From positions 32,001 through 96,000 of IMG/VR virus record IMGVR_UViG_3300046328_000506: 64,000 nucleotides of DNA. One strand, given 5' to 3'. The stretch is from a virus. Made by a program: the position numbers and the translations under genes. Below, piece by piece: positions 6,602 through 64,000 of this stretch. How positions within the stretch are numbered: position 1 is the first letter of the stretch; every line of letters begins with the position of its first letter. The notes beneath the pieces are model-generated. The model did not search any database. It was not told the origin of the DNA and saw only the letters and a program-made list of their open reading frames with translations.

Positions 6602-7935
6602 TACGCTAATTTAGTTAAGTTAAAGTTTGTAGAAGTTATCGTGTTATTCGCGTTTGCAGTTCCCCAAATTACTGTTACACTTAGAAGTTGAGATATTGTA
6701 GTATCAACAGTATTTGTAGCTGTATTAAGCAAACATATTTTTTCTTCTGTGGTATTATCTCTGAAATACTTAAATAAACCTTGTGAGAATATTGTACCAC
6801 TTACACCAGTTGTTCTATTAGTCAATTCAAAATCTAATTCAAATCTTCTTGTGCCAGTAATACTTAATAAAGTTGTTGCTGTTGTATCTAAAATAGTTAC
6901 AGCATTTAATTTTACTTGTATTCTAATAGTAGGTGGGATAGCGTCATCACCGATAAAACCTTGCACTCTACCTTTCAAAGTTTTACCAACCACAAAGAAA
7001 CTTGCAGGTAAAGAAAGAGTACCTTGCCCAGTCCCTAATAAAGTTGTTTCTGCTACAGTATTAGCTACTGTTTGACTTGCAGTTTGAGTAAATATTGTGG
7101 CGTTTAACCACTCGTTTATTCCACCTATGTCATATCTATAAGATTGTTGTGCTGAATCCCAAATATCTAATCCTGTTATTTCTTGTGGAGGTGCTGCTAT
7201 ACCTGATAAATTGCCTAAAAATCTATTATTCTGAATGTTTTGAATTTCAGTAAGTAAGATTTGAGCAAAAGGAAGGCTACGCCAAGTAGTACCATCGTAC
7301 CACTCTAATCTACCTGTTGTTGTATTTGAATACAATTGACCAATTAAAGGCGAAGGGATGGCAACACTTCTATTAGCTGTAGTTCCACTAAATCTTTCAA
7401 CAAAAGTGTTAAAAGCTATATTAGTAATATTACCAGAACTTCTACCAACTAAACTATTTGTTGTAACAGCAAAATCTTGTTCATTAGCTAATGCTGCTGT
7501 AGGATTAGATTTGATTGTATTTGCAGCACCTTGAGCTAATTGTGTGTTAGTAATTGAGTTATTTATTACTATTGCAGTAATTGAAGGAGTTCCATCATTA
7601 TACGTAAAATCAATTGTAGAACTATCTACTAAAATCGTACCTACAGCGTCTTGCGCTTGCTCATCTGTATAAAGTGCACCACCAACTTCCATATCCCACA
7701 ATACCCATGTAGCTGATAAATAAAGAATACCATCACCAGGCTGAACAGTAGTTCCTCCAACTGTACCACTATTAGTTCCGATTAACCATAAATCACCTTC
7801 AGTAGGAGTAGACGGATAACTTGGATTTGTATTGGCATTAGTAATAATACCTTTAACATTTATTACATTACCACTTACTACACCAGTTTCATAATAGTCT
7901 AACTCGTTTGTAAATGGATTAAATTTCCATGCCAT
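6601..7935 (-). CDS. Tail fibre-like structural protein
   Basis: MAWKFNPFT N-terminus, EQAQDAVG repeat-type motif, GQLYSNTTTGRLEWYDGTTW motif typical of fibres. Confidence 0.65.
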   Translation of the reverse strand: MAWKFNPFTNELDYYETGVVSGNVINVKGIITNANTNPSYPSTPTEGDLWLIGTNSGTVGGTTVQPGDGILYLSATWVLWDMEVGGALYTDEQAQDAVGTILVDSSTIDFTYNDGTPSITAIVINNSITNTQLAQGAANTIKSNPTAALANEQDFAVTTNSLVGRSSGNITNIAFNTFVERFSGTTANRSVAIPSPLIGQLYSNTTTGRLEWYDGTTWRSLPFAQILLTEIQNIQNNRFLGNLSGIAAPPQEITGLDIWDSAQQSYRYDIGGINEWLNATIFTQTASQTVANTVAETTLLGTGQGTLSLPASFFVVGKTLKGRVQGFIGDDAIPPTIRIQVKLNAVTILDTTATTLLSITGTRRFELDFELTNRTTGVSGTIFSQGLFKYFRDNTTEEKICLLNTATNTVDTTISQLLSVTVIWGTANANNTITSTNFNLTKLA

Positions 7936-7953: not shown

Positions 7954-8787
7954 TTATATTACTGTCCAAGAAGCAAATCCCCCCATATTTTCAAATCTGA
8001 AATTACTTCTGCATCCGTAAGGACTATTATCTTGTGTAGTTCCAAATATATACTCTTTACTTACTACATCAAAAACAACAGTGCTTGTAAAAACAGTTAC
8101 GTTATTTCTTTTAAATTCTAATCTACCATTAGGTAATACTAACATCTCATAATCAGCAGATGTCGCTGTATTTGCAGCAAAAACAAATGTTGTTGAACTT
8201 GGATTATATTCATACCACAGAGGAGTATGTCCTCCTGGAGTGTGCATTTGCATTACTACTGTAGGGTTTGTATAACTTGGAGTTATATAATTTCCAGCAT
8301 TAGCTTCAACATTACCTCGTTCTTGTAAGAAATATTGTAAAGAACCTAACCATCCTGAAGGAGTGTTATCTTCCATAGTCCATTTCATAGAAGAACCTAC
8401 TTGTACTTTTCTTGCTGATACAGTATTTAAGTAAGGGTTAGGAGTACAATTATTGATATTATTTGTGTAACATATCCAACCATCTCCACCAGAACCATAT
8501 TCAAATTGTATCATTTCAGTAGGAGAGCATATTACAGAATCTACAAATTCAACAAAACTAATACTATCACTACAAGCTGTCCCAAAAGCAGTATAGTTAG
8601 CAGTTACATTAAATGTAAAATTACCACTGACACCAATATCTCCAGCACTTGTTAAAGTTAGATTAGGAGCAGAATATGAAGCAGTTAAAGGGTAACTTAC
8701 GTTACTTTGGACTGCTGTAGCTGTAAATGATAATCCTGTAACCGAAGCTAAATTAGATACAGTTTTTACTAAATTTATCGTTGGCAT
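7954..8787 (-). CDS. Putative structural protein (Ig-like plus beta domain)
   Basis: 277 aa, Thr/Ser/Val-rich, in the fibre operon. Confidence 0.55.
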   Translation of the reverse strand: MPTINLVKTVSNLASVTGLSFTATAVQSNVSYPLTASYSAPNLTLTSAGDIGVSGNFTFNVTANYTAFGTACSDSISFVEFVDSVICSPTEMIQFEYGSGGDGWICYTNNINNCTPNPYLNTVSARKVQVGSSMKWTMEDNTPSGWLGSLQYFLQERGNVEANAGNYITPSYTNPTVVMQMHTPGGHTPLWYEYNPSSTTFVFAANTATSADYEMLVLPNGRLEFKRNNVTVFTSTVVFDVVSKEYIFGTTQDNSPYGCRSNFRFENMGGFASWTVI

Positions 8788-8788
8788 A

Positions 8789-9577
8789 TTAACTGTAGAT
8801 TAAAGCTGCTCTATTATCCCAAATATTTGTATGAGTTTGTGTTCCACCTGCCCAAGTAATTGTTAAACTACCTGTTGCTACAACTTCAACCATTCTCATT
8901 ATTTTCCATGTAGCAGCATTTGTTAAAGTTCCAGGTAAAGCCCATCCTACATAAGTTGTAGTTGAACCTGCTCCTGGAGTATTTGCTAATACATCTGTTC
9001 TTAAGACTGGTACTCCTCCTGTATTAACATGTATTCTACCGTATAAATCAGCAGAAGTTTGTATGTAGTCGCCAGTATTAGAAGTTGTAGATGAAAGTAC
9101 ATCTTGTCTTACTCCTAATATACTTACTCCACCATCACCACTTGCAGCTGGAGTATCCTCATACTTTACTAAATCATTTAATTTAGCTATAGTAGAAGTC
9201 TTAAAATCATTTACCTCAGCTATTAAATCAAGAATACTGTTTTGTATATCTGTAGTAACTACTAATAATGCTTGTAGCTCTGTAATAGCTGTTTGTAGCT
9301 CTGTTACAATAAGATTTGAGTTAGTTACCAATAAAGTAGTATCTGCTTCTATTGCTGTAACTAATGTTATAACGTTATTTAAAGAAGTTTCTATAGCTGC
9401 TGTATTAGCATCAATAGCCTGTACTGCCAATAATATCTCTGCTGTATCACTTTTTATATTTGTAAGTCTTGTTGTAATACCTACAAGATATGATTCAAGT
9501 AAATCTGGGTCTATAATCCTTGCCCAAATAGCTTGTAGTAACTCTATAATTCTCCCTGTTTCTATCGTTGTTTGCAT
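8789..9577 (-). CDS. Putative fibre/structural protein with coiled-coil N-half
   Basis: Heptad-like N-half; C-terminal TYVGWA.PG....ATWKIMR...W...WDNRAAL.YS motif seen in phage structural proteins. Confidence 0.6.
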   Translation of the reverse strand: MQTTIETGRIIELLQAIWARIIDPDLLESYLVGITTRLTNIKSDTAEILLAVQAIDANTAAIETSLNNVITLVTAIEADTTLLVTNSNLIVTELQTAITELQALLVVTTDIQNSILDLIAEVNDFKTSTIAKLNDLVKYEDTPAASGDGGVSILGVRQDVLSSTTSNTGDYIQTSADLYGRIHVNTGGVPVLRTDVLANTPGAGSTTTYVGWALPGTLTNAATWKIMRMVEVVATGSLTITWAGGTQTHTNIWDNRAALIYS

Positions 9578-10060
9578 ATAATTCTAATCTTTCTATGGTA
9601 CTTATATTGTTTTACAATGACTGTAGTTATTGTTCCAAATGTTGTAAGACATTGTTCACTAATATCGGAAGATTATCTCAATAGTTTATAGTATAGAACT
9701 TTGATACATAAATACTACAGAATATTAATATCATTATTTTTTATCATATAAAATACAACAGATTGCATCTGAGCTACAGTATATTGTATGTGCACATTCA
9801 AAAACTTATAAATATTGTCTTTCTATAGAGGAACAATTGTATACAACAACTCAGGTTTCACTACGGTGTAAGTGCTAAATACCCTATAACGCATTGATAC
9901 AGATACTCTTATACCACTATTTTACTGGTTTTAGAGTTAGCTATCATTAATATATGGCTAAATCGTAAAGTGTTAAAAATGCCCTTTATCAAATTGAGTA
10001 TTAGATAGTTACAACAAATATTCACTTTCACGCCTGTGAAAATAAAACAGTTACCATAAA

Positions 10061-10092
10061 TTTGCATGTATGTGAAAATATTCGTATATTTG
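10061..10092 (+). promoter_or_regulatory. Bacteroidota sigma-A promoter
   Basis: TTTG (10061-10064), 20-nt spacer, TATATTTG (10085-10092) upstream of 10118. Confidence 0.8.
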
Positions 10093-10117
10093 TAAACGAT
10101 TATAAACAATTTACATT

Positions 10118-10645
10118 ATGGAAAAAATAAAACTACAAAAAAAGCCCAAAAAAGCGTTTGACAAAAAGAAAACTCCTTTTGAAAAACCTAAGTTTGAAGA
10201 ATCTGATTTAGGTACAAATATATTTATAAGCTACCTACAAATCCCTGTATCACATTTTCCAGCAAAAAATGAGTACGTTAAAGATGATGAAGGAATACTT
10301 GTCAATAAAGAAGTTGATGTTGAATATACACCCTATACAAAAGTCTATCAAAAATCAAATCTAAGATTAATAATAGCGGGTTTAACTGATAAATCTAAAA
10401 GTTTGTATTTGTGGATTACGTATGAACTGGATTCTAATAAAGATTATTTGTGGATTAATGTGCCAAGATATATGGAAGAAAACAAGCTATCTTCTCTAAC
10501 TACATACTACAATGCTATAAAAGAATTACAGCGTTGGAATATAATGGTAAACACTACAGTAAAAGGTGTATATTGGATTAATCCTGAATATTTCTTTCGT
10601 GGTAATAGAATTGAAAAATATCCAAACAACTTAGTAAAAAGATAA
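10118..10645 (+). CDS. RepL-like replication/HTH protein (copy 1)
   Basis: YTKVY, YYNAIKEL, GVYWINPEYFFRGNR motifs typical of RepL-family proteins known from crAss-like phages. Confidence 0.75.
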   Translation: MEKIKLQKKPKKAFDKKKTPFEKPKFEESDLGTNIFISYLQIPVSHFPAKNEYVKDDEGILVNKEVDVEYTPYTKVYQKSNLRLIIAGLTDKSKSLYLWITYELDSNKDYLWINVPRYMEENKLSSLTTYYNAIKELQRWNIMVNTTVKGVYWINPEYFFRGNRIEKYPNNLVKR

Positions 10646-51715: not shown

Positions 51716-53665
51716 TTAAAATAAATCGTCTGAAGTAATGCTTTGTGCTTTCTTAGTGTAATTTGTAGGTACTTTATTGAAAAAGTCTGTATGTGTATTA
51801 GATAAGGTTTCTACATCAAACCATGCTACTTGTTTTAATAGTTCTGTATTAACATAGTATATCTTATTAGCGCCTATCATTTCTAATGACTTGTTAAATC
51901 TATCTTTTAAAAATTCTATAACTACATTTTTAGGTAAGAAATCTATTTCTCCATTTTGGAATATCCAATCTACTATTTTTTCTTCTGCTGAAAATGCTTT
52001 TTTACAAGCTCTTGTAATTGTGTCGTAAAACTCTTGTGTAAATATTTCTGGGCATTGCTTTTTAACTAAACTAATGATATAAGCCCCAGCTTTGGCATGG
52101 AGGTCTTCCTCTGACCTTGTAGCTTGTATTACATTATCAATACCTTTAAATAAATTCTTTTCTTTGTTGAATGATTTAATAATGAGGAACTGAGAAAACA
52201 AAGATACATTCTCTATAAATAAACTAAATAGAGTAAGGGTTAGTATGTATTGTTCTTTGTTATTTGAGCTTGCGTTTTTTAAATATTTTTCTAAATAATC
52301 TATTCTCCCTTGTATAACAGGTTCTTCTATTAGTTTTTCAAACGCTTCATTTAAACCTAATAATTCTAAAAGATTAGCATAAGCTCTTAGATGACGAATT
52401 TCCGAGTTACCCCCAATAAACGTACAATTATTATATCTTGTTACAATTGCACCAGATGGTACAGTTACACAATATATATTTCCTGTGTAATTTTCTATTG
52501 TTTCTTTAAGTGCGCTAAATGCTACTTTTTCTCTGTTAGCAATAAATGAAACAATATAAACATCGTTAAATGTTTCTTTTCTGGAATCTTTATGTATTCC
52601 CATATTAGCTTTATATCCAGCCAATGTTCCTATCATTTGTACAATATCAGCGTTTGTTTTGTCTGTGGTAGAATATTTTATCTTACAATCTTTTTTGTGT
52701 GGTAATCTTGTGCCATCCCAGTAAGACAATTCTTCAACAAAATCTTTACACCATAAATGAGATTGTTTATCAATTACAACCCAATTAAATTGCTTGTAAT
52801 TAAATTCTGTATCCATATCAATTTCAACTTTAATGTAACCTGTTTTTGTCACATTAAACGTTCTATATGTTACATCGCAATCTTTTAATATTTCAAAAAG
52901 CCTTTCTTTTTTACGTTCTTTCTTAACACTTATTTCATAAGTATGACAATTAGAACTTGTGCCCCTATGCCTTTTTTCTCCACTTTTTAATCTTCTCCAA
53001 CGAATTGAACCATCTGCTTGTATCGCAATTTTTAATCTTTCTAATGATGTTAGTTTATGAATTTCACCATTAATAATACCTGCTTCTGGTAAAAAATTAT
53101 TACTATTTTTTACACCAAGTTCTTTAATACTTTTTGATGTGTAGTTTCCTTTTGAATCAAAATACACGATTCTATGATTTGGTGTGATTTGTACATCAAT
53201 ACCTTTTTTGTGAAGTTTGTGAATTTCTCCAGAGTAATGTTCTTTAATAGTCCTAAGTGCTGGTGTAAAATTAATCTTACAATCTTCAGTATACTGTGCT
53301 ACTAAATCACCAACATTTATTTTTTCAAAATTTACCCATCCATTTGGTGTTAGTATTTCAGTGCCTTCAATATGACACTCACCGAAGCTAACACCCAGCA
53401 TATCAAATTCTGGTTTGGGGAATTGATTATACAAGTTACTCCAAAACCTTTTTACATTTACTTCTATTTGTGATATTGCAAGCATTGCATTTGTTACAGC
53501 ACTTCGTTCTACGACACTCAAATTTGCTTTGAAGTCTTGTATATCACTGTTATAATTGAACTCGCTATGAAGCCAATAGCTATGGTTTATAGCATCTACA
53601 AAATCTATTAACTCTGGGTACTCGTAAGGTTTTAACGTAGTTCTTTTTTCAAATATATTTGGCAT
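51716..53665 (-). CDS. nrdB: Class I ribonucleotide reductase beta subunit, intein-containing
   Basis: KPYEYP, SQIE, SEIRH..AY, IENVSLFSQF, EEDLH, DFF. Confidence 0.95.
   Translation of the reverse strand: MPNIFEKRTTLKPYEYPELIDFVDAINHSYWLHSEFNYNSDIQDFKANLSVVERSAVTNAMLAISQIEVNVKRFWSNLYNQFPKPEFDMLGVSFGECHIEGTEILTPNGWVNFEKINVGDLVAQYTEDCKINFTPALRTIKEHYSGEIHKLHKKGIDVQITPNHRIVYFDSKGNYTSKSIKELGVKNSNNFLPEAGIINGEIHKLTSLERLKIAIQADGSIRWRRLKSGEKRHRGTSSNCHTYEISVKKERKKERLFEILKDCDVTYRTFNVTKTGYIKVEIDMDTEFNYKQFNWVVIDKQSHLWCKDFVEELSYWDGTRLPHKKDCKIKYSTTDKTNADIVQMIGTLAGYKANMGIHKDSRKETFNDVYIVSFIANREKVAFSALKETIENYTGNIYCVTVPSGAIVTRYNNCTFIGGNSEIRHLRAYANLLELLGLNEAFEKLIEEPVIQGRIDYLEKYLKNASSNNKEQYILTLTLFSLFIENVSLFSQFLIIKSFNKEKNLFKGIDNVIQATRSEEDLHAKAGAYIISLVKKQCPEIFTQEFYDTITRACKKAFSAEEKIVDWIFQNGEIDFLPKNVVIEFLKDRFNKSLEMIGANKIYYVNTELLKQVAWFDVETLSNTHTDFFNKVPTNYTKKAQSITSDDLF
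52406..53377 (-). mobile_element. Intein (324 aa) with LAGLIDADG-like endonuclease in nrdB
   Basis: Begins CHIEGTEILT, block B TPNH, ends IYCVTVPSG...GGN before Ser; IAIQADG and LSYWDG motifs. Confidence 0.9.
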
Positions 53666-53697
53666 TGTATAATTGTTTATAATTTTAAAAAGGATTG

Positions 53698-53729
53698 CAA
53701 AGATAGTCTATAAAAACAAAAAACCCAAA
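53698..53729 (-). promoter_or_regulatory. Bacteroidota sigma-A promoter for nrdBA
   Basis: TTTG-N20-TATCTTTG on the minus strand. Confidence 0.75.
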
Positions 53730-53756
53730 TACTATGATACTTAGGTATTTGGGTTT
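53712..53756 (-). terminator. Intrinsic terminator
   Basis: AAACCCAAATAC / GTATTTGGGTTT stem followed by a U-tract on the minus strand. Confidence 0.7.
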
Positions 53757-53784
53757 AACTGTTTGAAATACATTATTTTATTTA

Positions 53785-54045
53785 CTAAAAAATTAATGTA
53801 AATATTAATATAATTATTTCAGCAATCCAATAATTTAATATTACTGATAAAGTAGTCATTAGCCACAAGTTATCATCTACTAAATCTTTAAAATATTTGT
53901 TTACTTTGTCTTGTTGTTCTTCTGGATTGTATTCATCTAATTCTACTGTTCTCGCTAAATACCAATTGTATAACAATAAAGATATGTAAATAGCTGATGC
54001 TGAAAACGCATATAGAATGTCTTTTGTTTTTTGATTCATAAACAT
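53785..54045 (-). CDS. Small two-TM membrane protein
   Basis: Hydrophobic N- and C-terminal segments. Confidence 0.55.
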   Translation of the reverse strand: MFMNQKTKDILYAFSASAIYISLLLYNWYLARTVELDEYNPEEQQDKVNKYFKDLVDDNLWLMTTLSVILNYWIAEIIILIFTLIF

Positions 54046-54093
54046 TAGTTTTATAATGCAAATTTAAGTACAAATAATTTAATATCACAATAA

Positions 54094-54125
54094 TTTGATA
54101 AAGATTTTTATTATTTATATCTTTG
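54094..54125 (+). promoter_or_regulatory. Bacteroidota sigma-A promoter
   Basis: TTTG-N20-TATCTTTG upstream of 54155. Confidence 0.75.
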
Positions 54126-54154
54126 TGCAAAATTAAAACTGATAAAAATAATAA

Positions 54155-54901
54155 ATGGAAACTTTAAAGACATTCAATATAAGTGAATATCCTTGTTTTG
54201 TAAAACGAGATGTGTTGAGAAAAGAAATAGAAGCATTAGGTATTAATGTAAATTGTGTATATGATATGTATGTATCAGAAGTACAAACTTATAAACATGG
54301 AAAGTATGTTTTTGTTTGGAGAACTTCTGGAGTACAAGATTTAATGGGAGATAACATAAAAGATTTAACGGAAAAACAAAAAGAGGATTTAGTGTACTTA
54401 GCTGCAAATGATAATTCTTTTATTTATAATGTGTTTGTTATCCCAATATCTATATTTGACAAAACTCCGTATATTGGCTTTCCTGCTGATACATATTCTG
54501 GTGATGTTATATCTAAATTAAAATGGATTATTGGGGAATTAAAAAAAGATGCCGAACAATACATTGATAGGTTTTTATCTTATAATGAGTACATTATTCG
54601 TCTGAGTATTGACTGGTATGATGGAAATGATGCTGAATATGAGTTTTTATTCAAACAAAATTTGCAAAATGAGTTATTTTACATTACCAATATCACAGGT
54701 AGAGGAGATACTTATAGATTTGGTATTGATAATAAGATTAGTAAATTAATAAGCGAAAATTTTAAAAGTATTATAGACAACTTTAAACTTACCTCTTATA
54801 CAAGAAATGAAAGTAGGGATAGAGAAAAAGAAGTTAATGGCGAGAAAATTCTCCATAAATGTTACGAAACTGATTATATAATTAAATTACCAATAAACTA
54901 A
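54155..54901 (+). CDS. Hypothetical protein
   Basis: 248-aa ORF with promoter. Confidence 0.7.
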   Translation: METLKTFNISEYPCFVKRDVLRKEIEALGINVNCVYDMYVSEVQTYKHGKYVFVWRTSGVQDLMGDNIKDLTEKQKEDLVYLAANDNSFIYNVFVIPISIFDKTPYIGFPADTYSGDVISKLKWIIGELKKDAEQYIDRFLSYNEYIIRLSIDWYDGNDAEYEFLFKQNLQNELFYITNITGRGDTYRFGIDNKISKLISENFKSIIDNFKLTSYTRNESRDREKEVNGEKILHKCYETDYIIKLPIN

Positions 54902-55001
54902 ATTTAACCTCCCTATAAAAACATGAGTACAATTATTATTATTTTTGCTCTTTTAGTTGTAATTAATTATGGTGTAAATATTTACATGAATAAAAAATCA
55001 A

Positions 55002-55268
55002 ATGAGACTAATTAATCTTTCATCAATACCTAAGTTTGGAGAATTATCTACTGAGGAAGCTATTGATTATTGCTTAGATAATGATATAGATACAATACGT
55101 GATAACTTCTCAGATTATAAAATAGAATATACTTTATCTGATTTAATTGTAATACCTGAATATAAAACTAAAACTATTTGGGAGAACATTAGGGATAGGG
55201 GAATTGAATATTTAGAAAGACAAGAGTTAAAAATTAAGATAAACTATTACCCAAAAGAATTTGAATAA
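55002..55268 (+). CDS. Hypothetical protein
   Basis: 88-aa ORF in plus-strand operon. Confidence 0.55.
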   Translation: MRLINLSSIPKFGELSTEEAIDYCLDNDIDTIRDNFSDYKIEYTLSDLIVIPEYKTKTIWENIRDRGIEYLERQELKIKINYYPKEFE

Positions 55269-55512
55269 AAATATGAAAACATATAAGTTGAGAAAATACA
55301 ATCCAAGTGGTCTTTTTGAAATCACAGAAAAAGATTACACTAAATTGAAAGGGGTTATTTTTTCAGAAGAAACAGATTCTATTGATATATTAAAATGCAC
55401 AGATACAAAAAGTGGTAACGAAGTGTATTTAAAAAATCTTTCTGTAAAAAATAATATTGCACAATTAGGGGCAAAAGGATATTTACCAAAAGTTATAGAT
55501 TTTAATAAATAA
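55261..55512 (+). CDS. Hypothetical protein
   Basis: 83-aa ORF; start possibly the internal ATG. Confidence 0.55.
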   Translation: MNKNMKTYKLRKYNPSGLFEITEKDYTKLKGVIFSEETDSIDILKCTDTKSGNEVYLKNLSVKNNIAQLGAKGYLPKVIDFNK

Positions 55513-55650
55513 TGAAACTTAAAATAGAAATACCACCTAATCAAGCTAACGCCTCATGCCCTAATAAAAATGAATGTAAAATAATTAGGATACCAAATGG
55601 TGATAGTGAAAGTTTAATGTGTAAGAACTGTAATAAAAAAGTAAATTAAA

Positions 55651-55956
55651 ATGAAGAAACTTGTATATGGAACACCTATGATAGATATATCTGACTTAGA
55701 ACAAGTAAAAGAAGAATCTACTAATAAAGTATTTAATGAAATAAAAATTAATCACTCAGAATTTATACAACAAACTTATAGTGAATCAATGACAGATTCT
55801 TCAAAAGTTAAAGTAATGACCTCTGTTTGTCTACTAACATCAAGAGAATTTGTTACACTAAATAAAATAATAGAAAAGTTAGAATCTGAGGATTATAGTA
55901 AAGGTGAAATAATTGAACAATTAAGAAAATTAACAACAGAAACTATTTATTTATGA
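55651..55956 (+). CDS. Hypothetical protein
   Basis: 101-aa ORF. Confidence 0.6.
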   Translation: MKKLVYGTPMIDISDLEQVKEESTNKVFNEIKINHSEFIQQTYSESMTDSSKVKVMTSVCLLTSREFVTLNKIIEKLESEDYSKGEIIEQLRKLTTETIYL

Positions 55957-56267
55957 AACTAACAATTGATACAAAACTAAAACAAATAATGATAGAAGAT
56001 TCTGTTAGTATTAACGAACTAAATTCTTTTATAGTAAAGAATGGTTATAATGATTATACAATAGTTTCAAAAGAAAAAATAGAAGCAGATAAATTAAGGG
56101 AATGGTTTAATCAACCAAGAGATTATATTACAACAAACAATCTCCCAACTTTTAATCCTACATATTATGGCGGTAATGATGCACTTGATAATAGTAAATC
56201 AATGATAGGTAAGGTTACAACAAATGGTAGTATGTCTTTTGGTAACTTCTCTAAAAACGCTTTGTAA
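55953..56267 (+). CDS. Hypothetical protein
   Basis: 104-aa ORF, ATGA-coupled. Confidence 0.6.
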   Translation: MKLTIDTKLKQIMIEDSVSINELNSFIVKNGYNDYTIVSKEKIEADKLREWFNQPRDYITTNNLPTFNPTYYGGNDALDNSKSMIGKVTTNGSMSFGNFSKNAL

Positions 56268-56610
56268 TATGATAATAAATAAAATGTTAATGTATAATGC
56301 AGTAATTTGTAATAAATTACCGTTTGATTTTTTTAAGGATGTTGAGTGTGATTTTTCTACTGTTGATGGTAATAGAAAAATATTTTATGTAAAGAGGGCA
56401 TTGGGGGAAATTTTAAAAATAGATGTTACAGACTATAGTGTTAGCATTTATTATTCAAAAGTTTTAGAACGTGATGGAAATAGTAGTATTGCAAAAACAA
56501 TAGAGGAGAGTTTTACTTATGGCTCTAAAAATACCAATGAGCATTTTGATATATGGTGTAATCGTATTATTAATTCTGTAAGCACAATTCAAGAGAAAAT
56601 GTTTGTATAA
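56224..56610 (+). CDS. Hypothetical protein
   Basis: ORF; true start probably downstream (MIINK). Confidence 0.55.
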   Translation: MVVCLLVTSLKTLCNMIINKMLMYNAVICNKLPFDFFKDVECDFSTVDGNRKIFYVKRALGEILKIDVTDYSVSIYYSKVLERDGNSSIAKTIEESFTYGSKNTNEHFDIWCNRIINSVSTIQEKMFV

Positions 56611-56675
56611 AAACTTTTATATTTCAATTATAAGCTAAGATAATTTTAAACCTATATTGTATCAACTTAAAAAAG

Positions 56676-56719
56676 AAAGTGCCTTAAAACTCAATTGTGA
56701 AAGTTTTAAGGCACTTTTT
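56676..56719. terminator. Bidirectional intrinsic terminator
   Basis: AAAGTGCCTTAAAACT / AGTTTTAAGGCACTTT between convergent gene blocks. Confidence 0.8.
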
Positions 56720-56910
56720 ATTTGCTTGGTATTTACTTTTTAATTTTATTAATATCATTTGTATCAACTTCTCTGTAACTAACATTCTCAAACTTTTTTG
56801 GAGAAGCTAATATGTTATCAAGTTCTTGTTTTGTAAGGATTTCCATTACAGTATTAGAACTGTACACATCTAAATAATTAACTAAGTATTTTTTCATGTT
56901 CTCTAATTGT

Positions 56911-57141
56911 TTAAATTAAACTTGGTTTATAATCTACTCTTTTTCTATTATCTATTGGTATCACTTTGTAAAAGCCTTCAATTAATATATTGTGGGTTTC
57001 AAAATTCTTAATCATGTTTTCTAATCTTTCTCCAACATTTTCTCCAAAACAAGTGTAGTTCATATCTTCTGATATTAACTCTGCTCAATTAGAAGGTAAG
57101 TGAAAATAGATTATACAATCTTTATGTATTTTTGGTTTCAT
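56911..57141 (-). pseudogene. 76-codon ORF with one in-frame TGA (pseudogene or read-through gene)
   Basis: MKPKIHKDCIIYFHLPSN-TGA-AELISEDMNY...KPSLI; ATG lies 1 nt after the stop of the upstream gene. Confidence 0.55.
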
Positions 57142-57142
57142 T

Positions 57143-57343
57143 TTATTCTTCAATTAAATCTTCATAATTAACTATTAACTCTTTCAACTGCTCTTCTGTT
57201 AAACCTCTTTCTCTAAAACCTTCTAACATAGCTTTATTACAAAGTATTTTTGGGGAAGGAAGTTCTGGCGAAGTCTCTATCTTTTTATATAGACTTGCAA
57301 ATGCTTCCTTTAATGCTTTTTCTGATAATTCAAAGTTACTCAT
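57143..57343 (-). CDS. Hypothetical protein
   Basis: 66-aa ORF. Confidence 0.6.
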   Translation of the reverse strand: MSNFELSEKALKEAFASLYKKIETSPELPSPKILCNKAMLEGFRERGLTEEQLKELIVNYEDLIEE

Positions 57344-57453
57344 TTTATTTTTGTTATACTAACTTTTTGTACTGTGCAAATAATTATGCTATTTTCTTGT
57401 GTGGCTACGTTAAGGTATTTTTGGTACAGTGTGCGGTGGAGGAAACCATCTTG

Positions 57454-57966
57454 TTAATTTTCATACCCCTGCCTATACACTACATTGTTTGGAAATTTAG
57501 TTACCCTATTCCCTTGAAAAAAGAAATCTGGGTTTGTCCAGTATATCCCTTTAACTACTGATTGTTGTATTATACAATACCTTGTTAATTCTTTTATCGC
57601 ATTATGATATGTAGAGAGAGATTTAATTAAATTCTCATCCATATATCTTTTTGTATTTATCCACACAAAATCTTTATTTGAGTCTGCTTCATATATTAAC
57701 CACAAATATAACCTTTGTGATTTGTCAGATAGCCCATTTATAATTTGTCTGTGAATAGCTTTTGTATAAACTTTTGTAAATGGAGTATATTCCATCTCCA
57801 ATTGCTTGTTTATCAAATCCCCATCCTTGTCTTTATGATAAGTATCTTTCTGGGTAAACGTAGATACTGGTATTTGTAACCCACATACAAAAGGATTAAT
57901 ACCTAAATCCTTTTCTTCAAATAATGGTTTGTATACTCTTGATGATTCTTTCTTTCTCGCAGCCAT
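57454..57966 (-). CDS. RepL-like replication/HTH protein (copy 2)
   Basis: Colinear paralogue of 10118..10645 (FTKVY, YHNAIKEL, GIYWTNPDFFFQGNR). Confidence 0.75.
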   Translation of the reverse strand: MAARKKESSRVYKPLFEEKDLGINPFVCGLQIPVSTFTQKDTYHKDKDGDLINKQLEMEYTPFTKVYTKAIHRQIINGLSDKSQRLYLWLIYEADSNKDFVWINTKRYMDENLIKSLSTYHNAIKELTRYCIIQQSVVKGIYWTNPDFFFQGNRVTKFPNNVVYRQGYEN

Positions 57967-57985
57967 TGATTGTTCTAATTATTTA

Positions 57986-58017
57986 CAAAGATACGAAGAA
58001 TTTATTATAAATACAAA
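57986..58017 (-). promoter_or_regulatory. Bacteroidota sigma-A promoter
   Basis: TTTG-N20-TATCTTTG upstream of repL-like copy 2. Confidence 0.78.
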
Positions 58018-58713
58018 TAATTGTACTAATTATGTTTATTTGTATAATGTTTTTATTCTTGTAATATACAGTACAAAAAATTACTATGATAAAAATGATA
58101 TAACTTATTGATTGTTAGAGCTTTACAAGGATATTATGACAAACTCGTTTTAGCAGTAATATTAATTACTTTGTACCAAATCCAAGTATAGTTAAATAGT
58201 GGTATAACTACTGTGATACTCAATGAGTTACAGTGATTTTCTCTATGTAAAAAATTGTACTACTATTTTTATACCCCTCCCCCTTTTGAATTTAATATCT
58301 TTAACCGTTATAAATTTTTACACAGTACCTATATTAGTAATGATACCCCCTCACTTTTTAATGGGATTATAGTTTCTGATAATAAAATTGTATGTGTGTG
58401 TTCTAAGGGTGATACCATCTCATAATTGACCCTCCATCAAGAGCGTATTAGAAAATAGAATTGATATACTGTTTCCTATTGGGAACAGTCTATTGATTTT
58501 ATAAAAAAGAATAGCTTTACAGTAATGTAAAGTAACAGAATCAATTAAGCGGTGTTAGTTGCTTAATCTATTCTTATTCTAATGTGCATAGTAAGGCGTT
58601 ATCTTGCAAGGCTTAACACACTTGTAAGATATTAGGATAAGAATAAAAGGGTATCCCTTTTTTCTCTTTGCAGTGTTAAATAGTTTCCTTACAACTATTG
58701 CAAAGTTTTTTAA

Positions 58714-58786
58714 CTTGTATATGACAGATGCCTTTACGTGGCATACAAGATAAGTAATTACGAAAGTAATGAAACTAAATCTGTCA
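58714..58786 (+). ncRNA. HDV-like self-cleaving ribozyme candidate
   Basis: P1 CTTGTAT/ATACAAG, P2 TGACAGAT/ATCTGTCA, P3 GCC/GGC with 7-nt L3 TTTACGT, P4 ATTAC-GAAA-GTAAT, J4/2 ...ACTAA; the helices occur in the nested double-pseudoknot order. Confidence 0.7.
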
Positions 58787-58953
58787 AAATTGGATTATTC
58801 CAATAGAGTTTAAGTCTTAACACGTTGTTTTGTCTTAACTTTGTTGTACTATTCTAATAACAGTTGTGTATGTTTTCTTTAATAGCATACAAAGGTTAAA
58901 TTGTGATATACCTATTAATCTACTCACACAAAAATACCATACCATTTATTTAT

Positions 58954-59433
58954 ATGAAATCATTAACAGAATTATTAGCAGAATTAGCAGCAGCACCAGC
59001 AAACAAAAAAGCAGCAATTCAGTTACAAATTGATGCCAAAAAAGCAAGTAGAACTAATAGCTTAACTGCCTATGCAGAAAAATATGTAACAAGTTCCTTG
59101 TTTTATGGTTCAAAAGAAGAGCAGGCAATTAATATGCAGGTTGTTTTCAATGATGATGATACTGTAAAAACAAAAGAAGTGCAGGCATCAGGCAACAAAA
59201 AAACACAACGTATCATTGCAATTAACATTGATACGGAAAAGGAAATCACTTTGCCGTCGTTATCTGAATTGAAAAAATTTAGCGGTGAATCTGAAAACTT
59301 TTGGAATCATTGCAATTATGGGCAACCGTTTGCTTTAAAGTTTACTACTATCAAAAGTGGTGAAGAGAATCCGTTGACTTCAGAAACCTATACAAGACCC
59401 ACTTTTGCTGTTAGTGAAATTACGTCTATGTAG
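58954..59433 (+). CDS. Hypothetical protein, probably highly expressed
   Basis: ATG at 58954 (MKSLTELLAELAAAPANKK); followed by a terminator. Confidence 0.7.
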   Translation: MKSLTELLAELAAAPANKKAAIQLQIDAKKASRTNSLTAYAEKYVTSSLFYGSKEEQAINMQVVFNDDDTVKTKEVQASGNKKTQRIIAINIDTEKEITLPSLSELKKFSGESENFWNHCNYGQPFALKFTTIKSGEENPLTSETYTRPTFAVSEITSM

Positions 59434-59441
59434 TAAGTCTT

Positions 59442-59486
59442 ATACATACCTTGTATATTTCTATATATAAGGTATGTATTTTTTTT
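59442..59486 (+). terminator. Intrinsic terminator
   Basis: ATACATACCTT / AAGGTATGTAT stem plus T-run. Confidence 0.7.
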
Positions 59487-59519
59487 AATTGATTTTTTCA
59501 CACTTTAATTTTTACTTTT

Positions 59520-59705
59520 ATGAAGTGTACTATTTTATTTTTTGCAGGTATTGACAAAGAAACAAGGGAATATACCAAAGAATCTTATGTTTGTGATTTT
59601 CCTTTAAAATTTGGATTTGGTTCTTTTAACGAGGATAGCATTATTAAAAATATACCTAAAAAGATATTTGTCAAAGATATTATATCTATTGACTTAATAG
59701 ATTAA
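59520..59705 (+). CDS. Small hypothetical protein
   Basis: 61-aa ORF. Confidence 0.5.
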   Translation: MKCTILFFAGIDKETREYTKESYVCDFPLKFGFGSFNEDSIIKNIPKKIFVKDIISIDLID

Positions 59706-59964
59706 TAAAGAATATTGAGAATGTTAGAGTTCTCTATTCTTTTAAAATATAAAATACCTTGACTCAGTCATTTCAAACATTTTTACTATTCAACAGTAAA
59801 ACGTGTAAGAAAATATAACGGTGTCGTCATAGGTGTTTGTGTCTATTTTTAGTCTACTCTAACAAATAATTTAGGCTTGTCTAAACTTTTGTTTTGGTTT
59901 ATCTAATCTTTTTCTTATTAAATACCTTGACACAGGGAAATCTCACATTTAATCATTTAAAAAC

Positions 59965-60171
59965 ATGTTAGTTATATATAGAGGAATACTTTCTTTTGCT
60001 GATTTAAGAGAATTAAGCAAAGAGTCTGACATCTCCAACAGACAATACTTGATAAAAGTAATTGGGGAAACTATGGAAACATTTTTTGTTACCAAAGAAG
60101 ATTACGAATCATTTCGTAGTGGACTCTCTACATCTGATAGAGGTACATATTGGTTTGAGATGGGATATTAG
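59965..60171 (+). CDS. Small hypothetical protein
   Basis: 68-aa ORF with AT-rich leader. Confidence 0.55.
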   Translation: MLVIYRGILSFADLRELSKESDISNRQYLIKVIGETMETFFVTKEDYESFRSGLSTSDRGTYWFEMGY

Positions 60172-60193
60172 TTTAGGTGTTCTTAAAACACCT

Positions 60194-60295
60194 CTGTCGT
60201 TTATATGCACTATGGAGTATCTTACTAACGTAAGATACGTGTATAAACCTGATGAAATAAGTATCTAACGACACTTAGGGGATAACCCGAAACAG
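60194..60295 (+). ncRNA. Type III hammerhead-like ribozyme with insertion
   Basis: Stem III CTGT/ACAG, GTC cleavage triplet, 10-bp stem I, CTGATGA core, GGG-ATAA-CCC stem II, GAAAC; 23-nt insert between A9 and G10.1. Confidence 0.6.
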
Positions 60296-60349
60296 TAACC
60301 ATAAATTTTCTTAATTTTACATTTTCAAATACTAAATAATATAAATATC

Positions 60350-60562
60350 ATGGAAGAAACATTAGTAATAAATGGTATAACTTATGGAGAAGTTGTATCG
60401 GAGTTTACAGCGTTAAGCAAATATACTGGCGAATCAATTTCTGTTGAAGGTGTTGAATTTAATCAGTACGAAAATGGGAAAATTGAAACTCCTATTGGCT
60501 ACGACACTATTGATGGTGAAGATTGCACTATTTGGGGTAGTCGTTATCCTGTATCATTGTAA
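60350..60562 (+). CDS. Small acidic hypothetical protein
   Basis: 70-aa ORF. Confidence 0.6.
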   Translation: MEETLVINGITYGEVVSEFTALSKYTGESISVEGVEFNQYENGKIETPIGYDTIDGEDCTIWGSRYPVSL

Positions 60563-60586
60563 AGGCAAATTTTAACTTAGAAAAAT

Positions 60587-60799
60587 ATGACACAAGAAGT
60601 ATTTATTGACGAACAAGGGAATGTGATTCTTAATAGAGAAACATTTGAACCAAAGCCAAACGAGAAATTTGGCAATCCATATCGTGAAAATGGGGAATTG
60701 CACGTATCTTTTACTTTTGAAGGAGGGCATGATTATCCTATGTTTTATTCTTCAATAGAAGAGCTTAGTGCCATCAAACAATGGTATTGGGAAAGCTAA
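60587..60799 (+). CDS. Small acidic hypothetical protein
   Basis: 70-aa ORF. Confidence 0.6.
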   Translation: MTQEVFIDEQGNVILNRETFEPKPNEKFGNPYRENGELHVSFTFEGGHDYPMFYSSIEELSAIKQWYWES

Positions 60800-60862
60800 A
60801 TAAAACTTAAACTTGCAAATTTATATTAGATTATTCTTCTTTTAGAACTATCTATTGTATAT

Positions 60863-61162
60863 TTGCAAGTTGATTTTAACTTAAAAGACGAACTCGTTAC
60901 GTCATTAAAGAAGCGAGATAAAATGCCATTATTTTCAAGCCAAGTAATTGGCTATTTTAACAATGAGTACGGGAGTGCTTATTGTGATATTTACTGCTCA
61001 GATAATTTGTCAGAGCAACAAATGGAAGAGATTCATCAGAATCATCTTCAAAACGGTGATGTGTATCGCCAATGTACTTTTATGAGTCTTGTAGAGGCTC
61101 GTAAAATGTGGAAAGAAAATCCACAGTACATAGAACTATTTGAATCCTTTTGGGAAAAATAG
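60863..61162 (+). CDS. Hypothetical protein
   Basis: ORF; start uncertain (internal MPLFS possible). Confidence 0.55.
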   Translation: MQVDFNLKDELVTSLKKRDKMPLFSSQVIGYFNNEYGSAYCDIYCSDNLSEQQMEEIHQNHLQNGDVYRQCTFMSLVEARKMWKENPQYIELFESFWEK

Positions 61163-61590
61163 TGTACACTGATAGGGGAAATAAACTCCTTAATCAATAG
61201 TAGAGTTGGGTAATCGCATGATTATTTAAACTATTGAGGATTGAACAACAATTCTATTTTTTGTATGTTTTTAAAAACATAATCCTGTTTGAGCAGGGAT
61301 ACCATAGAGTATCAAAGGTGATTAGGCTCAAATTTCGTCACAGTGCCAGTTGAGAAGGTTCTTAATCAACCTTCTCAAGAAATCGTGTGTCATCACACGG
61401 AAGATTGGGGAAACCCATTAGGAGGAGTGGAACCTTGTGATGAGCAAGGAAACTCTATAACAACTCCATTGATAGATGAAAATCTTCTGTGGATAGTTGT
61501 AGAAGACTAATAATCTTCTAACGTAAGACGACCACGAAACGGTTGAAAGAGTAGTAACTCTCCTGAATAAAAGCAGGGTATAGTAAAAAA

Positions 61591-61790
61591 GATTTCATAG
61601 CTCAATTGGTCAGAGCATTTTAAAATAAACAACAGCTTTTTTTATAAGTGAAGATAGTAACTTATAATTTAAACGTAGTTGTTGAAGTGATTAAAAGATA
61701 ATAAAAGCCCAGCAGAATGGGAAGAAACGAAAACTTTTAATCAGTTGTTTATTTTTAAAAAGGTTTCAGGTTCAAGTCCTGATGATTTCA
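61591..61790 (+). ncRNA. tRNA-like RNA with the anticodon loop replaced by a 133-nt insert
   Basis: D-arm GCTC-AATTGGTCA-GAGC, T-arm TCAGG-TTCAAGT-CCTGA, variable loop AGGTT, acceptor GATTTCA/TGATTTC (two U-U mismatches), anticodon stem TTTTA/TAAAA. Confidence 0.7.
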
Positions 61791-62526
61791 CGAACTCGAA
61801 TATATTGTTAATGGCATCTGGACTCCGAAGTAGGCTATGTTGTGAGACATAGAAAAAAAGGGCTAACAGAAATAATGTTCTAACAATACAACGAAGCATC
61901 TGTGTAGAAGTACAATACATAGGTAATCATAGCTTCCATATAACCGTTTTAAAGTGTGTTGGGTTATAGAATACTAATAGACTATACAATGTCTATTGAA
62001 TATCGGCTCGAAAGAGACCATATAAAGTTTGAAGTAAAAGTTTCGTTGGCTCAAATGAATACTGCTAAGAGTTGAAAACGCAGAGACGAAACAATATTTT
62101 ATTTCAAATGGTGGCAGCAGTCAGAAATGATTGCCTCAATTATATTATTACAACAACCTTATGTTAAGTTAAAAGGTAAAAGACGGTTCAGGTTTAAACC
62201 GATACCTTGTTGTAATAAGATAAAAGAGTAGTAACTGTTAGTAATAACAGACTTCATCAGACGTGATGACTTGGAGAGCAAACTAAGGTTCGTGTATCTC
62301 TTTACGTTGTGCAGACCCGAAAGGGTAATAAACAAATGGTCAATAATAAGGGAAATTTCTCTTTAAAGTAAAATTATGTAAAGTAATATATGTGTTGTTA
62401 TAGCAACAGTGAGTAATCACAAACATATATGAAATCATAAGCTGCTATAACAGAACTTTAAATAGAAAAGGAGTATCGAATACTTCATTGACCGCATTTT
62501 TTTAAATTAATTAAAACTCATATACG

Positions 62527-63114
62527 ATGAAAACTACTCTTTTCGTGGCATTTAGCCACACTCTTACTCAAAGCCAAATTGACGGCTTTCAAAGTCAATT
62601 TTCTACTCAAACTGTTATCAGAGAATTTTCTGATAATGGTGGTATTCCCACTGGTGACGGTGGAGAAGCGTTTACTGAATTTGTTGATTTCAGTATTGTA
62701 AGTCTTGGTGAAGTTGCACCAGAATTACAAGCTCAAATGAGCCAAATTCCTGCAAGAGCTACTTTACAAGAAGTTCAAGAGCTTGCGAAAAGCATTGTAG
62801 CTGAAGCAATCAAAGCTGGTGCAACACATTTTTTCTGTGTTGGTGAACCTACTCTTACAATGTGGGCTAACTTATTGATAGAAAGAAAGATGGTGTCAGC
62901 AAGACTCACTTACTATGTGTCAGAAGATGGTACAGAAGTAGGGTGGGGTAAAACTTCATCTGTTTTTGTAGAGGATAGATACAAAGTCGAACATCCTCAA
63001 ATTACTTGTATTCAATCAACCACTGAACGTCAATCAGTTGAGGAAACTCAACCTGACGGAAGTGTTTTAAAAAAGGCTATCTTCAACCACGTAATGTGGC
63101 GAGAAATGTTTTAG
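62527..63114 (+). CDS. Csx20-like CARF-related protein (candidate cA4 ring nuclease / anti-CRISPR)
   Basis: LFVAFSHTLTQSQ...LQAQMSQIP...VGEPTL...STTERQSVEE.QPDGSV.K..IF.HV.WRE matches my recollection of the Csx20 pattern FSHxLT..Q / WSNIP / QGDF / TTxR.S.E..DG..K.F.HV.FR. Confidence 0.7.
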   Translation: MKTTLFVAFSHTLTQSQIDGFQSQFSTQTVIREFSDNGGIPTGDGGEAFTEFVDFSIVSLGEVAPELQAQMSQIPARATLQEVQELAKSIVAEAIKAGATHFFCVGEPTLTMWANLLIERKMVSARLTYYVSEDGTEVGWGKTSSVFVEDRYKVEHPQITCIQSTTERQSVEETQPDGSVLKKAIFNHVMWREMF

Positions 63115-63195
63115 TTCTTTAAGTTTGTAGGTGTATATCTTTAAAACCTTCACATAATGTTCCAAAGACTATTAGGAAAGACTAATAACAATACC

Positions 63196-63289
63196 TGCTA
63201 TAAAGCCATGTAGGCTCTCAATCTTCAAAAGAGAAGGGAAAGTGGTGAGTAACATCATTAGTAGGGTACGAGTCCCTTATATAGCACAA
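63196..63289 (+). ncRNA. Degenerate tRNA-like element with a CUUCAAA (UCA) loop and long variable arm
   Basis: Acceptor TGCTATA/TATAGCA, D-stem AGCC/GGCT, variable arm AGTGGTG/CATCATT, T-arm AGGG-TACGAGT-CCCT; anticodon stem imperfect. Confidence 0.45.
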
Positions 63290-63465
63290 TTAAACTTATT
63301 TTTAAATATTTACCACAATAGTTTTAATACTGTTGTTTGGTATTTTTTACAACTTATTCCAAATGCAAGGGGTAAGTATGTTTAGTAATTGGGGCTTGTG
63401 GTTACTAATAGCTATGGTAGCTGTTAGGTATATTCGTGCAATTTTACTCATTAAACTATAATACT

Positions 63466-63627
63466 ATGGAAAACTCTTTTGAAGTAGAAATGGATTTCTC
63501 CGATTTAGAATTAGATTGGGAAATAGATGAAGACTTTGATGATTCAGATTTTATGGATTATGAAGAGTCTGATGACGAGTACCAAGAACGCTTAGAAAGG
63601 TCTTGGGCTAAATACGAAAACGATTAA
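63466..63627 (+). CDS. Extremely acidic small protein (DNA-mimic candidate)
   Basis: 53 aa from ATG 63466; 24 Asp/Glu residues. Confidence 0.6.
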   Translation: MENSFEVEMDFSDLELDWEIDEDFDDSDFMDYEESDDEYQERLERSWAKYEND

Positions 63628-63694
63628 AAATAAACTTCCCGTTATCACCAGAAATCAAGTAGGGTGAATAACGGGTTTCCAAAATATTTATGTT

Positions 63695-63856
63695 ATGAAA
63701 TTATCACACATTGAAAATACAATCTTTGGATTAGGTGTGGCTACTTGTTTATTAAGTTGCTACACTATCCCTTTGTTACTACCACAAATATTCTTTTGCT
63801 TGGCTTCATTAACTTTGAGTATTGGAATATTTGAAAACACAACACAAAAAAATTAA
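63695..63856 (+). CDS. Small membrane protein
   Basis: Own translation MKLSHIENTIFGLGVATCLLSCYTIPLLLPQIFFCLASLTLSIGIFENTTQKN. Confidence 0.5.
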   Translation: MKLSHIENTIFGLGVATCLLSCYTIPLLLPQIFFCLASLTLSIGIFENTTQKN

Positions 63857-63891
63857 ATCATTTTACATAACCATTTAACTTTACAAAAATT

Positions 63892-64000
63892 ATGAGAAAA
63901 TTAATTTTGCCTATTCTATTAGGTTTCGTTCTTATTGCAATCTTAGGGATTGTGGGTTCAGTATCGGCTCAGTCAGCATTTGAAGTGGCTGTCTACACTA
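63892..64000 (+). CDS. Partial secreted protein
   Basis: MRKLILPILLGFVLIAILGIVGSVSA|Q signal peptide; runs off the window. Confidence 0.55.
   Translation, partial: MRKLILPILLGFVLIAILGIVGSVSAQSAFEVAVYT

Follow-up and report, generated by a model that had tools for sequence, protein, structure and literature searches.

Why would a phage without a CRISPR system of its own carry a gene of a family known from type III CRISPR loci? The question is raised by an ATG-initiated ORF encoding 195 amino acids (aa) on the plus strand, at 62527..63114 of the 64,000-nt stretch of viral DNA analyzed here (hereafter the window). The window comprises bases 32001-96000 of a linear virus record (IMGVR_UViG_3300046328_000506) of 130,171 bases, estimated to be 76% complete, which has a G+C content of 29.7% and two tRNA genes, both outside the window. 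A first-pass annotation, made from the letters alone, had proposed that the ORF encodes a Csx20-like ring nuclease, captured from a host and repurposed as an early anti-CRISPR in a crAss-like phage.

By scanning 24 large ORFs of the record we identified a portal protein (4.2e-59), a large terminase (TerL, 1.2e-59), a major head protein and a virion structural protein, together with a ribonucleotide reductase, a thymidylate synthase, an exonuclease and a metallophosphoesterase. The portal, TerL and major capsid protein (MCP) genes show that the Csx20-like gene is encoded by a virus, as is expected of an anti-CRISPR. The terminase has matches in 118 deposited phage records, each below 60% identity, with Bacteroides, Flavobacterium, Cellulophaga and Azobacteroides as the named hosts, and the best matches among those listed are crAss-like phages at 24.8-27.3% identity. 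The crAss-like label is thus right as to the nearest terminase relatives, but at 25-27% identity these are distant, and the assignment, which rests on TerL similarity, appears to hold only at a distance. Among 50,697 deposited phage records, neither a tblastn search with the window protein nor a search with 24 kb of window DNA gave any match. The stretch is carried by freshwater metagenome runs, which gives freshwater as its habitat, and identical pieces from inside the gene were found in two further freshwater runs; the runs listed as carrying the stretch include no RNA runs, and the early timing suggested at first pass is conjectural.

Structural and nucleotide-metabolism genes make up a minus-strand block that extends to about 85.7 kb of the record and is followed by a plus-strand block of small ORFs, about 8.4 kb into which the Csx20-like gene is situated. 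Open-frame statistics also revealed a 5728-codon open frame in the minus-strand block, outside the window. The absence of cas genes and of an array, first remarked on for the window, was borne out across the whole record: Cas10 (Csm1 or Cmr2) had no match in the 130 kb, no 18-mer was repeated three or more times at the 45-100-nt spacing of a CRISPR-like array, and the gene lies neither in nor beside a type III CRISPR-cas locus. AcrIII-1 (DUF1874, PF08960) and Tad2 likewise had no match in the whole record. All five motifs quoted in the first-pass annotation were located in the 195-aa translation, and the features of the gene are as follows.

62527..63114, plus strand: Csx20-family (MJ1673/PF27247) gene, 195 aa plus stop codon, identified from the ORF, NCBIfam CAS_Csx20, PADLOC Csx20 and hhalign.
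62551..62577, plus strand, aa 9-17: motif FSHTLTQSQ, with S10, H11, L13, T14 and Q17, in the loop directly after strand 1.
62605..62697, plus strand, about aa 27-57: insertion 1, between helix 1 and strand 2, delimited by gaps in the alignment of short homologues, by spacing and by the structure model.
62725-62751, plus strand, aa 67-75: motif LQAQMSQIP, present in the translation.
62839..62850, plus strand, aa 105-108: motif VGEP, with G106, E107 and P108 directly after a modelled strand (aa 101-105).
62881..63000, plus strand, about aa 119-158: insertion 2, between the last helix and the C-terminal hairpin, delimited by alignment and spacing and poorly modelled.
63016..63045, plus strand, aa 164-173: motif STTERQSVEE, with T165, T166 and R168, in the first strand of the C-terminal hairpin.
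63052..63105, plus strand, aa 176-193: C-terminal hairpin motif PDGSV.K..F.HV.WR (PDGSVLKKAIFNHVMWRE), with D177, G178, K182, F186, H188, W191 and R192.

The relationship to Csx20 was examined with several independent libraries. The NCBIfam model CAS_Csx20 (NF040559) matched the window protein in two stretches, the best of which spans aa 158-193, with 42.1 bits (E 1e-10); its equivalog cut-off of 70 bits was not reached. Three PADLOC Csx20 models, one of which bears the name 'Csx15/20/peptidase', matched at E 1.3e-9 to 5.6e-6. A word-indexed search yielded 221 candidates, 51 of which reached E <= 0.001; these range from 115 to 278 aa in length, and the nearest non-self relatives are 51-54% identical. 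PF27247, the MJ1673 family in the Atlas, was precomputed for 48 of these 51 close homologues and for the window protein itself. The local Pfam copy was without PF27247, and its scan of the window protein gave a Zeta_toxin match of 14.7 bits, below the threshold of 22.3 bits and taken as noise. PHROGs gave no match to the window protein, and a sequence search of solved structures with it gave nothing meaningful.

A profile built from 20 members of the protein's clade was searched against 1.84 billion representative proteins, giving 1139 matches at E <= 0.001, 219 at E <= 1e-10 and 62 at E <= 1e-30. An NCBIfam scan of 56 of the 1139 placed 24 above the 70-bit Csx20 cut-off and 31 below, with one unmatched. 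One match, of 614 aa, consists of a Csx1-type (TM1812/DxTHG) N-terminal part and a Csx20-like C-terminus. When the clade alignment was compared by hhalign with the 21 above-cut-off Csx20 proteins, a check that had been named in advance as a test of the proposed family, the probability was 100% (E 1.9e-42) over 131 columns, covering template positions 1-133 of 137. Since the NCBIfam, PADLOC, PF27247, clade-profile and hhalign results all agree, and the residues invariant in canonical Csx20 are kept, the Csx20 relationship named at first pass holds; at the level of sequence, the window protein is a true Csx20 homologue and the homology is secure. Nineteen close relatives were also scanned with NCBIfam, of which 17 scored 28.7-64.2 bits, all below the cut-off, and two were unmatched. 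The 123-aa forms among them span Csx20 profile positions 1-123, so that the low scores extend to relatives without insertions, and functional equivalence to canonical Csx20 is therefore not guaranteed.

For a residue-level comparison we used an alignment of 22 clade members and 21 canonical Csx20 proteins. The window protein keeps every position that is invariant (21/21) in the canonical set, i.e. H11, Q17, G106, T166, F186, H188 and R192, and two of these, H11 and Q17, are also found in all 22 clade members. Near-invariant positions are kept as well, namely R168, G178 and K182 (20/21), T165 (19/21), and D177 and L13 (18/21). The position of E107 holds E in 15 and D in five of the canonical proteins, while position 191, W in the window protein, holds F in 15, Y in four and W in two. 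Specific to the clade are S164 (13 of the 21 canonical proteins have A here), W191, a fixed GEPTL motif and T100-H101. According to the accessible part of a review, the prediction that Csx20 is a ring nuclease was founded on His, Arg and Asp/Glu residues, and judged from conservation the active site is probably kept in the window protein.

Family membership, the kept residues and the location in a phage without cas genes agree with the anti-CRISPR role proposed at first pass, and we consider it the best reading, with a probability of about 0.6, that the gene encodes a cyclic tetra-adenylate (cA4) ring nuclease with which the phage counters type III CRISPR signalling. In that case a phage of lytic type would carry a stand-alone ring nuclease of the Csx20 type. 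Judging by canonical Csx20, the protein would assemble into a CARF-like dimer that binds the cA4 produced by the host Cas10 upon infection and cuts it to linear products. As a consequence, the effectors that cA4 activates (Csx1, Can or Cam type) would never switch on, or would switch off, the net effect being enzymatic anti-type-III-CRISPR activity. The published biochemistry fits such a role, as Csx20 has been reported to degrade cA4 fully, and also cA3 at tenfold more enzyme (PMC12409355).

The same residue data bear on two rivals to this reading, which concern what the protein does with its ligand and which ligand it prefers. The protein might bind cyclic oligoadenylate (cOA) with slow or no turnover, serving as a sponge and not as a nuclease. 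The family is CARF-like, the insertions could support oligomerisation, and there is a precedent in Csx15, which its paper describes as a good cA4 sponge and a very slow ring nuclease; we nevertheless consider such a sponge improbable, as the window protein keeps all of the residues that are invariant in the catalytically active Csx20 family. The accessible text of the Csx15 paper moreover deems sponging a poor answer to the large cOA amounts made by type III systems, and in the available portions of PMC12830947 and PMC13148439, which place Crn4b on phages and plasmids, Csx15 is given as absent from phages. It is also rather unlikely that the protein is a nuclease whose main target is a different signal, for example cA3 produced by CBASS or type III systems, cA6 or another cyclic oligonucleotide, through a shift of specificity in a divergent clade. 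Such a shift would be in line with the cA3 activity of canonical Csx20 at higher enzyme concentration, with the clade-specific differences beside conserved positions (S164 not A, W191 not F, and T100-H101) and with one relative found beside a Tad2-like gene (see below), which counters a different signalling system. The invariant residues close to the ligand are unchanged, however, and extrinsic ring nucleases are reported to co-occur only with cA4-dependent effectors (PMC12409355, as far as its accessible text goes). A cA4-directed ring nuclease remains our preferred reading.

The protein also differs from canonical Csx20 in its length, a third of it being lineage-specific insertion. The spacing from Q17 to P66 is 48 residues, compared to a median of 18 (range 12-21) in 35 proteins on the canonical side of the tree, and that from P108 to T165 is 56 residues, compared to a median of 20 (range 16-27). 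This amounts to about 30 and 36 additional residues and confirms that the two insertions noticed from the sequence, there put at 25-35 aa, are real. Spacings of at least 35 residues were found at neither site in any of the 35 canonical-side rows. In the window protein's own subclade they occurred in 17 of 29 rows at site 1 and in 21 of 29 at site 2, and among the remaining 94 rows in nine and 26, respectively. Both sites differ in length and sequence even between close relatives, and such length-hypervariable insertions were seen only in the sub-cut-off clade. The idea that longer homologues have RHH- or aca-like N-terminal extensions was dropped, as a scan of 21 proteins found no Pfam domain.

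An AlphaFold2 model of the window protein had a mean pLDDT of 83.5 and a pTM of 0.74, with the core above 90. In the model, a strand (aa 3-9) is followed by S10-H11, a helix spans aa 15-25, and the strand at aa 101-105 is followed by G106-E107-P108, while the STTER and H..WR motifs are placed in a C-terminal hairpin with strands at aa 160-174 and 180-193. An insertion-free relative has the same predicted order of strands and helices as Csx20. Insertion 1 is modelled as a hairpin with strands at aa 28-31 and 49-52 at moderate confidence (pLDDT 67-69), and insertion 2 falls below a pLDDT of 50 at aa 126-129 and 141-154. Ligand loops come after the strands in folds of the Rossmann type. Since both insertions are at helix-to-strand links, Rossmann-fold topology would put them on the edge opposite the ligand loops, where, going by the model, they need not disturb catalysis. 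A Foldseek search against the PDB gave no match at E <= 1e-3, and the fold-search matches include unrelated Rossmann-like proteins. In BFVD, one clear viral structural relative was found, a nameless protein of 128 aa (E 1e-6, TM 0.81 by target), together with a second, weaker one from an uncultured Caudovirales phage.

In order to place the protein within its family, a FastTree phylogeny of 158 rows and 135 columns was used, in which many forks are unresolved; it left out rows of fewer than 110 or more than 210 aa and six partial matches. Eighteen of the 21 above-cut-off proteins fall on one side of this tree, comprising 35 rows. The window protein is found in a clade of 121 rows (support 95), the scanned members of which are 41 sub-cut-off and two above-cut-off proteins, and its nearest row is P0011 (support 96). 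The gene has a G+C content of 38.8%, compared to 29.9 +/- 3.1% for 104 ORFs of the phage, while its GC3 of 23.6% is close to the phage's own (18.6 +/- 4.3% in the phage ORFs). By this compositional measure, adaptation of the gene to its phage is largely complete.

By pattern scans, relatives were detected in four further virus records and at 20 metagenome loci, the majority of them short. Of these four virus records, one has a terminase 35% identical to that of the window phage, one has a distant match and two show none. The same scans of 185,579 species genomes gave no match with the first pattern set and a single weak one (27% identity) with the second, which was based on a closer alignment (A3) as alignment A2 was too diverse for patterns; because the scans rely on exact peptide patterns, this near-absence is weak evidence. 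Six loci had long flanks (L002/L018, L003, L004/L024, L009, L022 and L031), and all of them are phage-like or resemble other mobile genetic elements (MGEs), with small ORFs. No cas genes were found among the 82 flanking ORFs scanned, and the neighbors that could be named are a DEAD-box helicase, RecT, YqaJ, DNA methylases, Rep3, DnaB, MazG, LRR and AAA proteins. At one of the six (L003), a Tad2-like (anti-Thoeris sponge) gene at 6457-6768 (E 1.5e-19) lies 1.2 kb upstream of the Csx20-like gene on the same strand, and the two are possibly an anti-defence cluster. Another locus (L031) holds two Csx20-like ORFs 1 kb apart, at 8659-9039 and 9992-10369, both sharing about 25% identity with the window protein. 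The family was also recognized in a cultivated phage, the 180-kb Fusobacterium phage JD-Fnp4, whose 121-aa 'hypothetical protein' JDFnp4_75 (L035, 3968-4333) belongs to the Csx20 family by hhalign (probability 99.3%, E 8.3e-21). It departs from the family at conserved positions, with GFP for GEP, AYSER for ATTER and a final motif without the Arg.

The idea of a captured host ring nuclease, put forward at first pass, finds little in its favor here. The relatives are at most 54% identical, the sub-cut-off clade is large, the long-flank contexts are all phage- or MGE-like, the species genomes gave next to nothing and the GC3 is near that of the phage; taken together, the clade, context, genome-scan and GC3 results speak against the gene having been captured recently from a host. 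What emerges looks like an old lineage moving among mobile elements, with either direction of transfer possible. The nearest Atlas clusters (scores 0.82-0.87, to be taken as leads only) are of the MJ1673 family, with 55-109 members, and are 50-100% viral among the few members that have a taxon. A more far-reaching scenario, which we put forward tentatively and regard as unlikely, is that the 121 of 158 rows in the clade are mainly from viruses and mobile elements, that Csx20-type ring nucleases are far commoner in uncultivated phages than among deposited genomes (4 in 28,114), and that the family radiated in viruses as has been proposed for AcrIII-1/Crn2. The insertions would then possibly form a surface shaped by an arms race and provide a second activity, which may be docking onto an effector, oligomerisation upon ligand binding, or escape from a host factor able to detect or block ring nucleases.

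The surroundings of the gene were analyzed for further functional hints. Pfam domains could be named in few of the 46 neighboring ORFs, i.e. RepL, GH108, HAD_SAK_2, GIY-YIG, DUF932 and a weak DUF7365, and no cas family or known anti-defence gene was among them. PHROGs named none of 21 ORFs from the record itself and none of 30 overall. An aca-type regulator (RHH/HTH) beside the gene, or a known anti-defence gene adjacent to it, would be typical of anti-CRISPR loci; neither was recognized at the window locus, the regulator having been looked for in the 46 (Pfam) and 21 (PHROGs) ORFs. In a tblastn comparison of the record's ORFs with the loci of the relatives, the Csx20-like gene alone was common in the region around it. 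This bears on whether the protein could have a phage-internal or non-defence role, as a nucleotide-sensing regulator or as an enzyme that reuses the CARF-like fold on another phosphodiester substrate. While such a role would suit a score below the equivalog cut-off, neighbors that are all of unknown function and fold matches to unrelated Rossmann-like proteins, it is quite improbable given the strong full-length homology and the Csx20-specific residue pattern, and given that the gene travels among unrelated phages independently of its neighbors, as accessory counter-defence genes do.

Several other sequence features were noted in this part of the window. Between 54000 and 64000, open frames of at least 70 codons cover 58% of the sequence, compared to 90-97% elsewhere in the record. 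Recoding of stop codons was considered for the sparse ORFs and rejected, as read-through of TAG or TGA leaves the longest frames no longer, and Rfam gave no match at E <= 0.1 in 53000-64000. A RepL-like ORF (PF05732, E 2.7e-8) is located on the minus strand at 57454-57966, inside the plus-strand block of small ORFs; a parallel is seen at L022, where a minus-strand Rep3 initiator is found amid plus-strand small ORFs. Upstream of the gene, nested inverted repeats at 62356-62468 (14 nt at 93% and 10 nt at 100% complementarity) form an imperfect hairpin of ~110 nt, 60-170 nt before the gene start, with an RNA fold z-score of -2.68, and its 10-mer occurs exactly at just these two places in the window. 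The gene is also flanked by tRNA-like pieces at 61591-61791 and 63197-63287 (D-arm-like and T-arm-like), which ARAGORN calls solely at relaxed thresholds or with an intron, while with default settings it detects none in the window; the pieces are possibly remnants of tRNAs. A 63-aa ORF on the plus strand at 63436-63627, 320 nt downstream of the gene, is strongly acidic (24 D+E and 3 K+R, pI 4.05) and had no Pfam or PHROGs match. Its product could be a small protein of the DNA-mimic type.

The low coding density also raises the possibility that the gene is a decaying passenger without function, for which the difference between its G+C content (38.8%) and the ORF mean (29.9%) might speak as well. 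To this we give almost no weight, as the frame is intact, the invariant residues are all kept, the GC3 is near that of the phage and identical pieces occur in two other runs.

Compared to other known systems, the protein is closest to canonical Csx20 (NF040559; PF27247 'MJ1673'), a type III-associated stand-alone cA4 ring nuclease to which it is homologous over the whole ~124-residue domain and with which it shares the invariant residues. It differs in scoring below the cut-off, in its separate 121-row clade (support 95), in its insertions of ~30 and ~36 residues, which are absent in 35 of 35 canonical-side proteins, and in its location in a phage without cas genes. MJ_1673 itself was described as a ~130-aa protein tied to type III-A systems of Methanococcales (PMC3973734). 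Csx20 has been reported as the commonest extrinsic ring nuclease, with 78 loci, and was found in four of 28,114 (Millard) phage genomes, in which AcrIII-1 occurred in 36 and Csx16 in two (PMC12409355). Both these phage copies and the csx20-aca14 operons described in Pasteurella multocida (PMC13551039) have been proposed to serve in counter-defence (PMC12409355, PMC13551039). The window gene resembles the published phage and prophage cases in being a Csx20-family gene on a mobile element, there read as co-opted, but in contrast to the csx20-aca14 operons no RHH/HTH aca-type neighbor was recognized beside it. Crn1 (Sso2081), a CARF-family cA4 ring nuclease, has a different set of conserved residues, and no sequence match to solved chains was obtained. 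AcrIII-1/Crn2 (DUF1874, PF08960) is a viral cA4 ring nuclease with the same proposed job and of an unrelated family. Csx16, Csx15, Crn4b and AcrIII-2 (viral SAVED) are likewise small proteins that bind or degrade cOA, some of them carried on phages and plasmids according to the accessible literature, but they belong to different families, and the best library matches of the window protein are Csx20 models. Within the literature on Csx20, ring nucleases and anti-CRISPRs, the coverage of which is incomplete, we found no published assay of a viral Csx20 and no Csx20 in a crAss-like phage.

As phage Csx20 is already in print as a candidate anti-CRISPR, the core idea is not new and the value of the present case is incremental. 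The novelty lies in the variant itself, which is divergent, scores below the cut-off, bears insertions and comes from a freshwater phage with a distant relationship to crAss-like phages. Because the gene scores 42 bits against a threshold of 70, our analysis suggests that curated cut-offs under-count phage Csx20-like enzymes. Few viral antagonists of type III CRISPR signalling are known, and the window gene, which is compact and intact, can serve as a test case from a lineage of uncultivated freshwater phages. Its insertion-bearing architecture is, furthermore, a natural experiment on which parts of a small CARF-like fold tolerate change.
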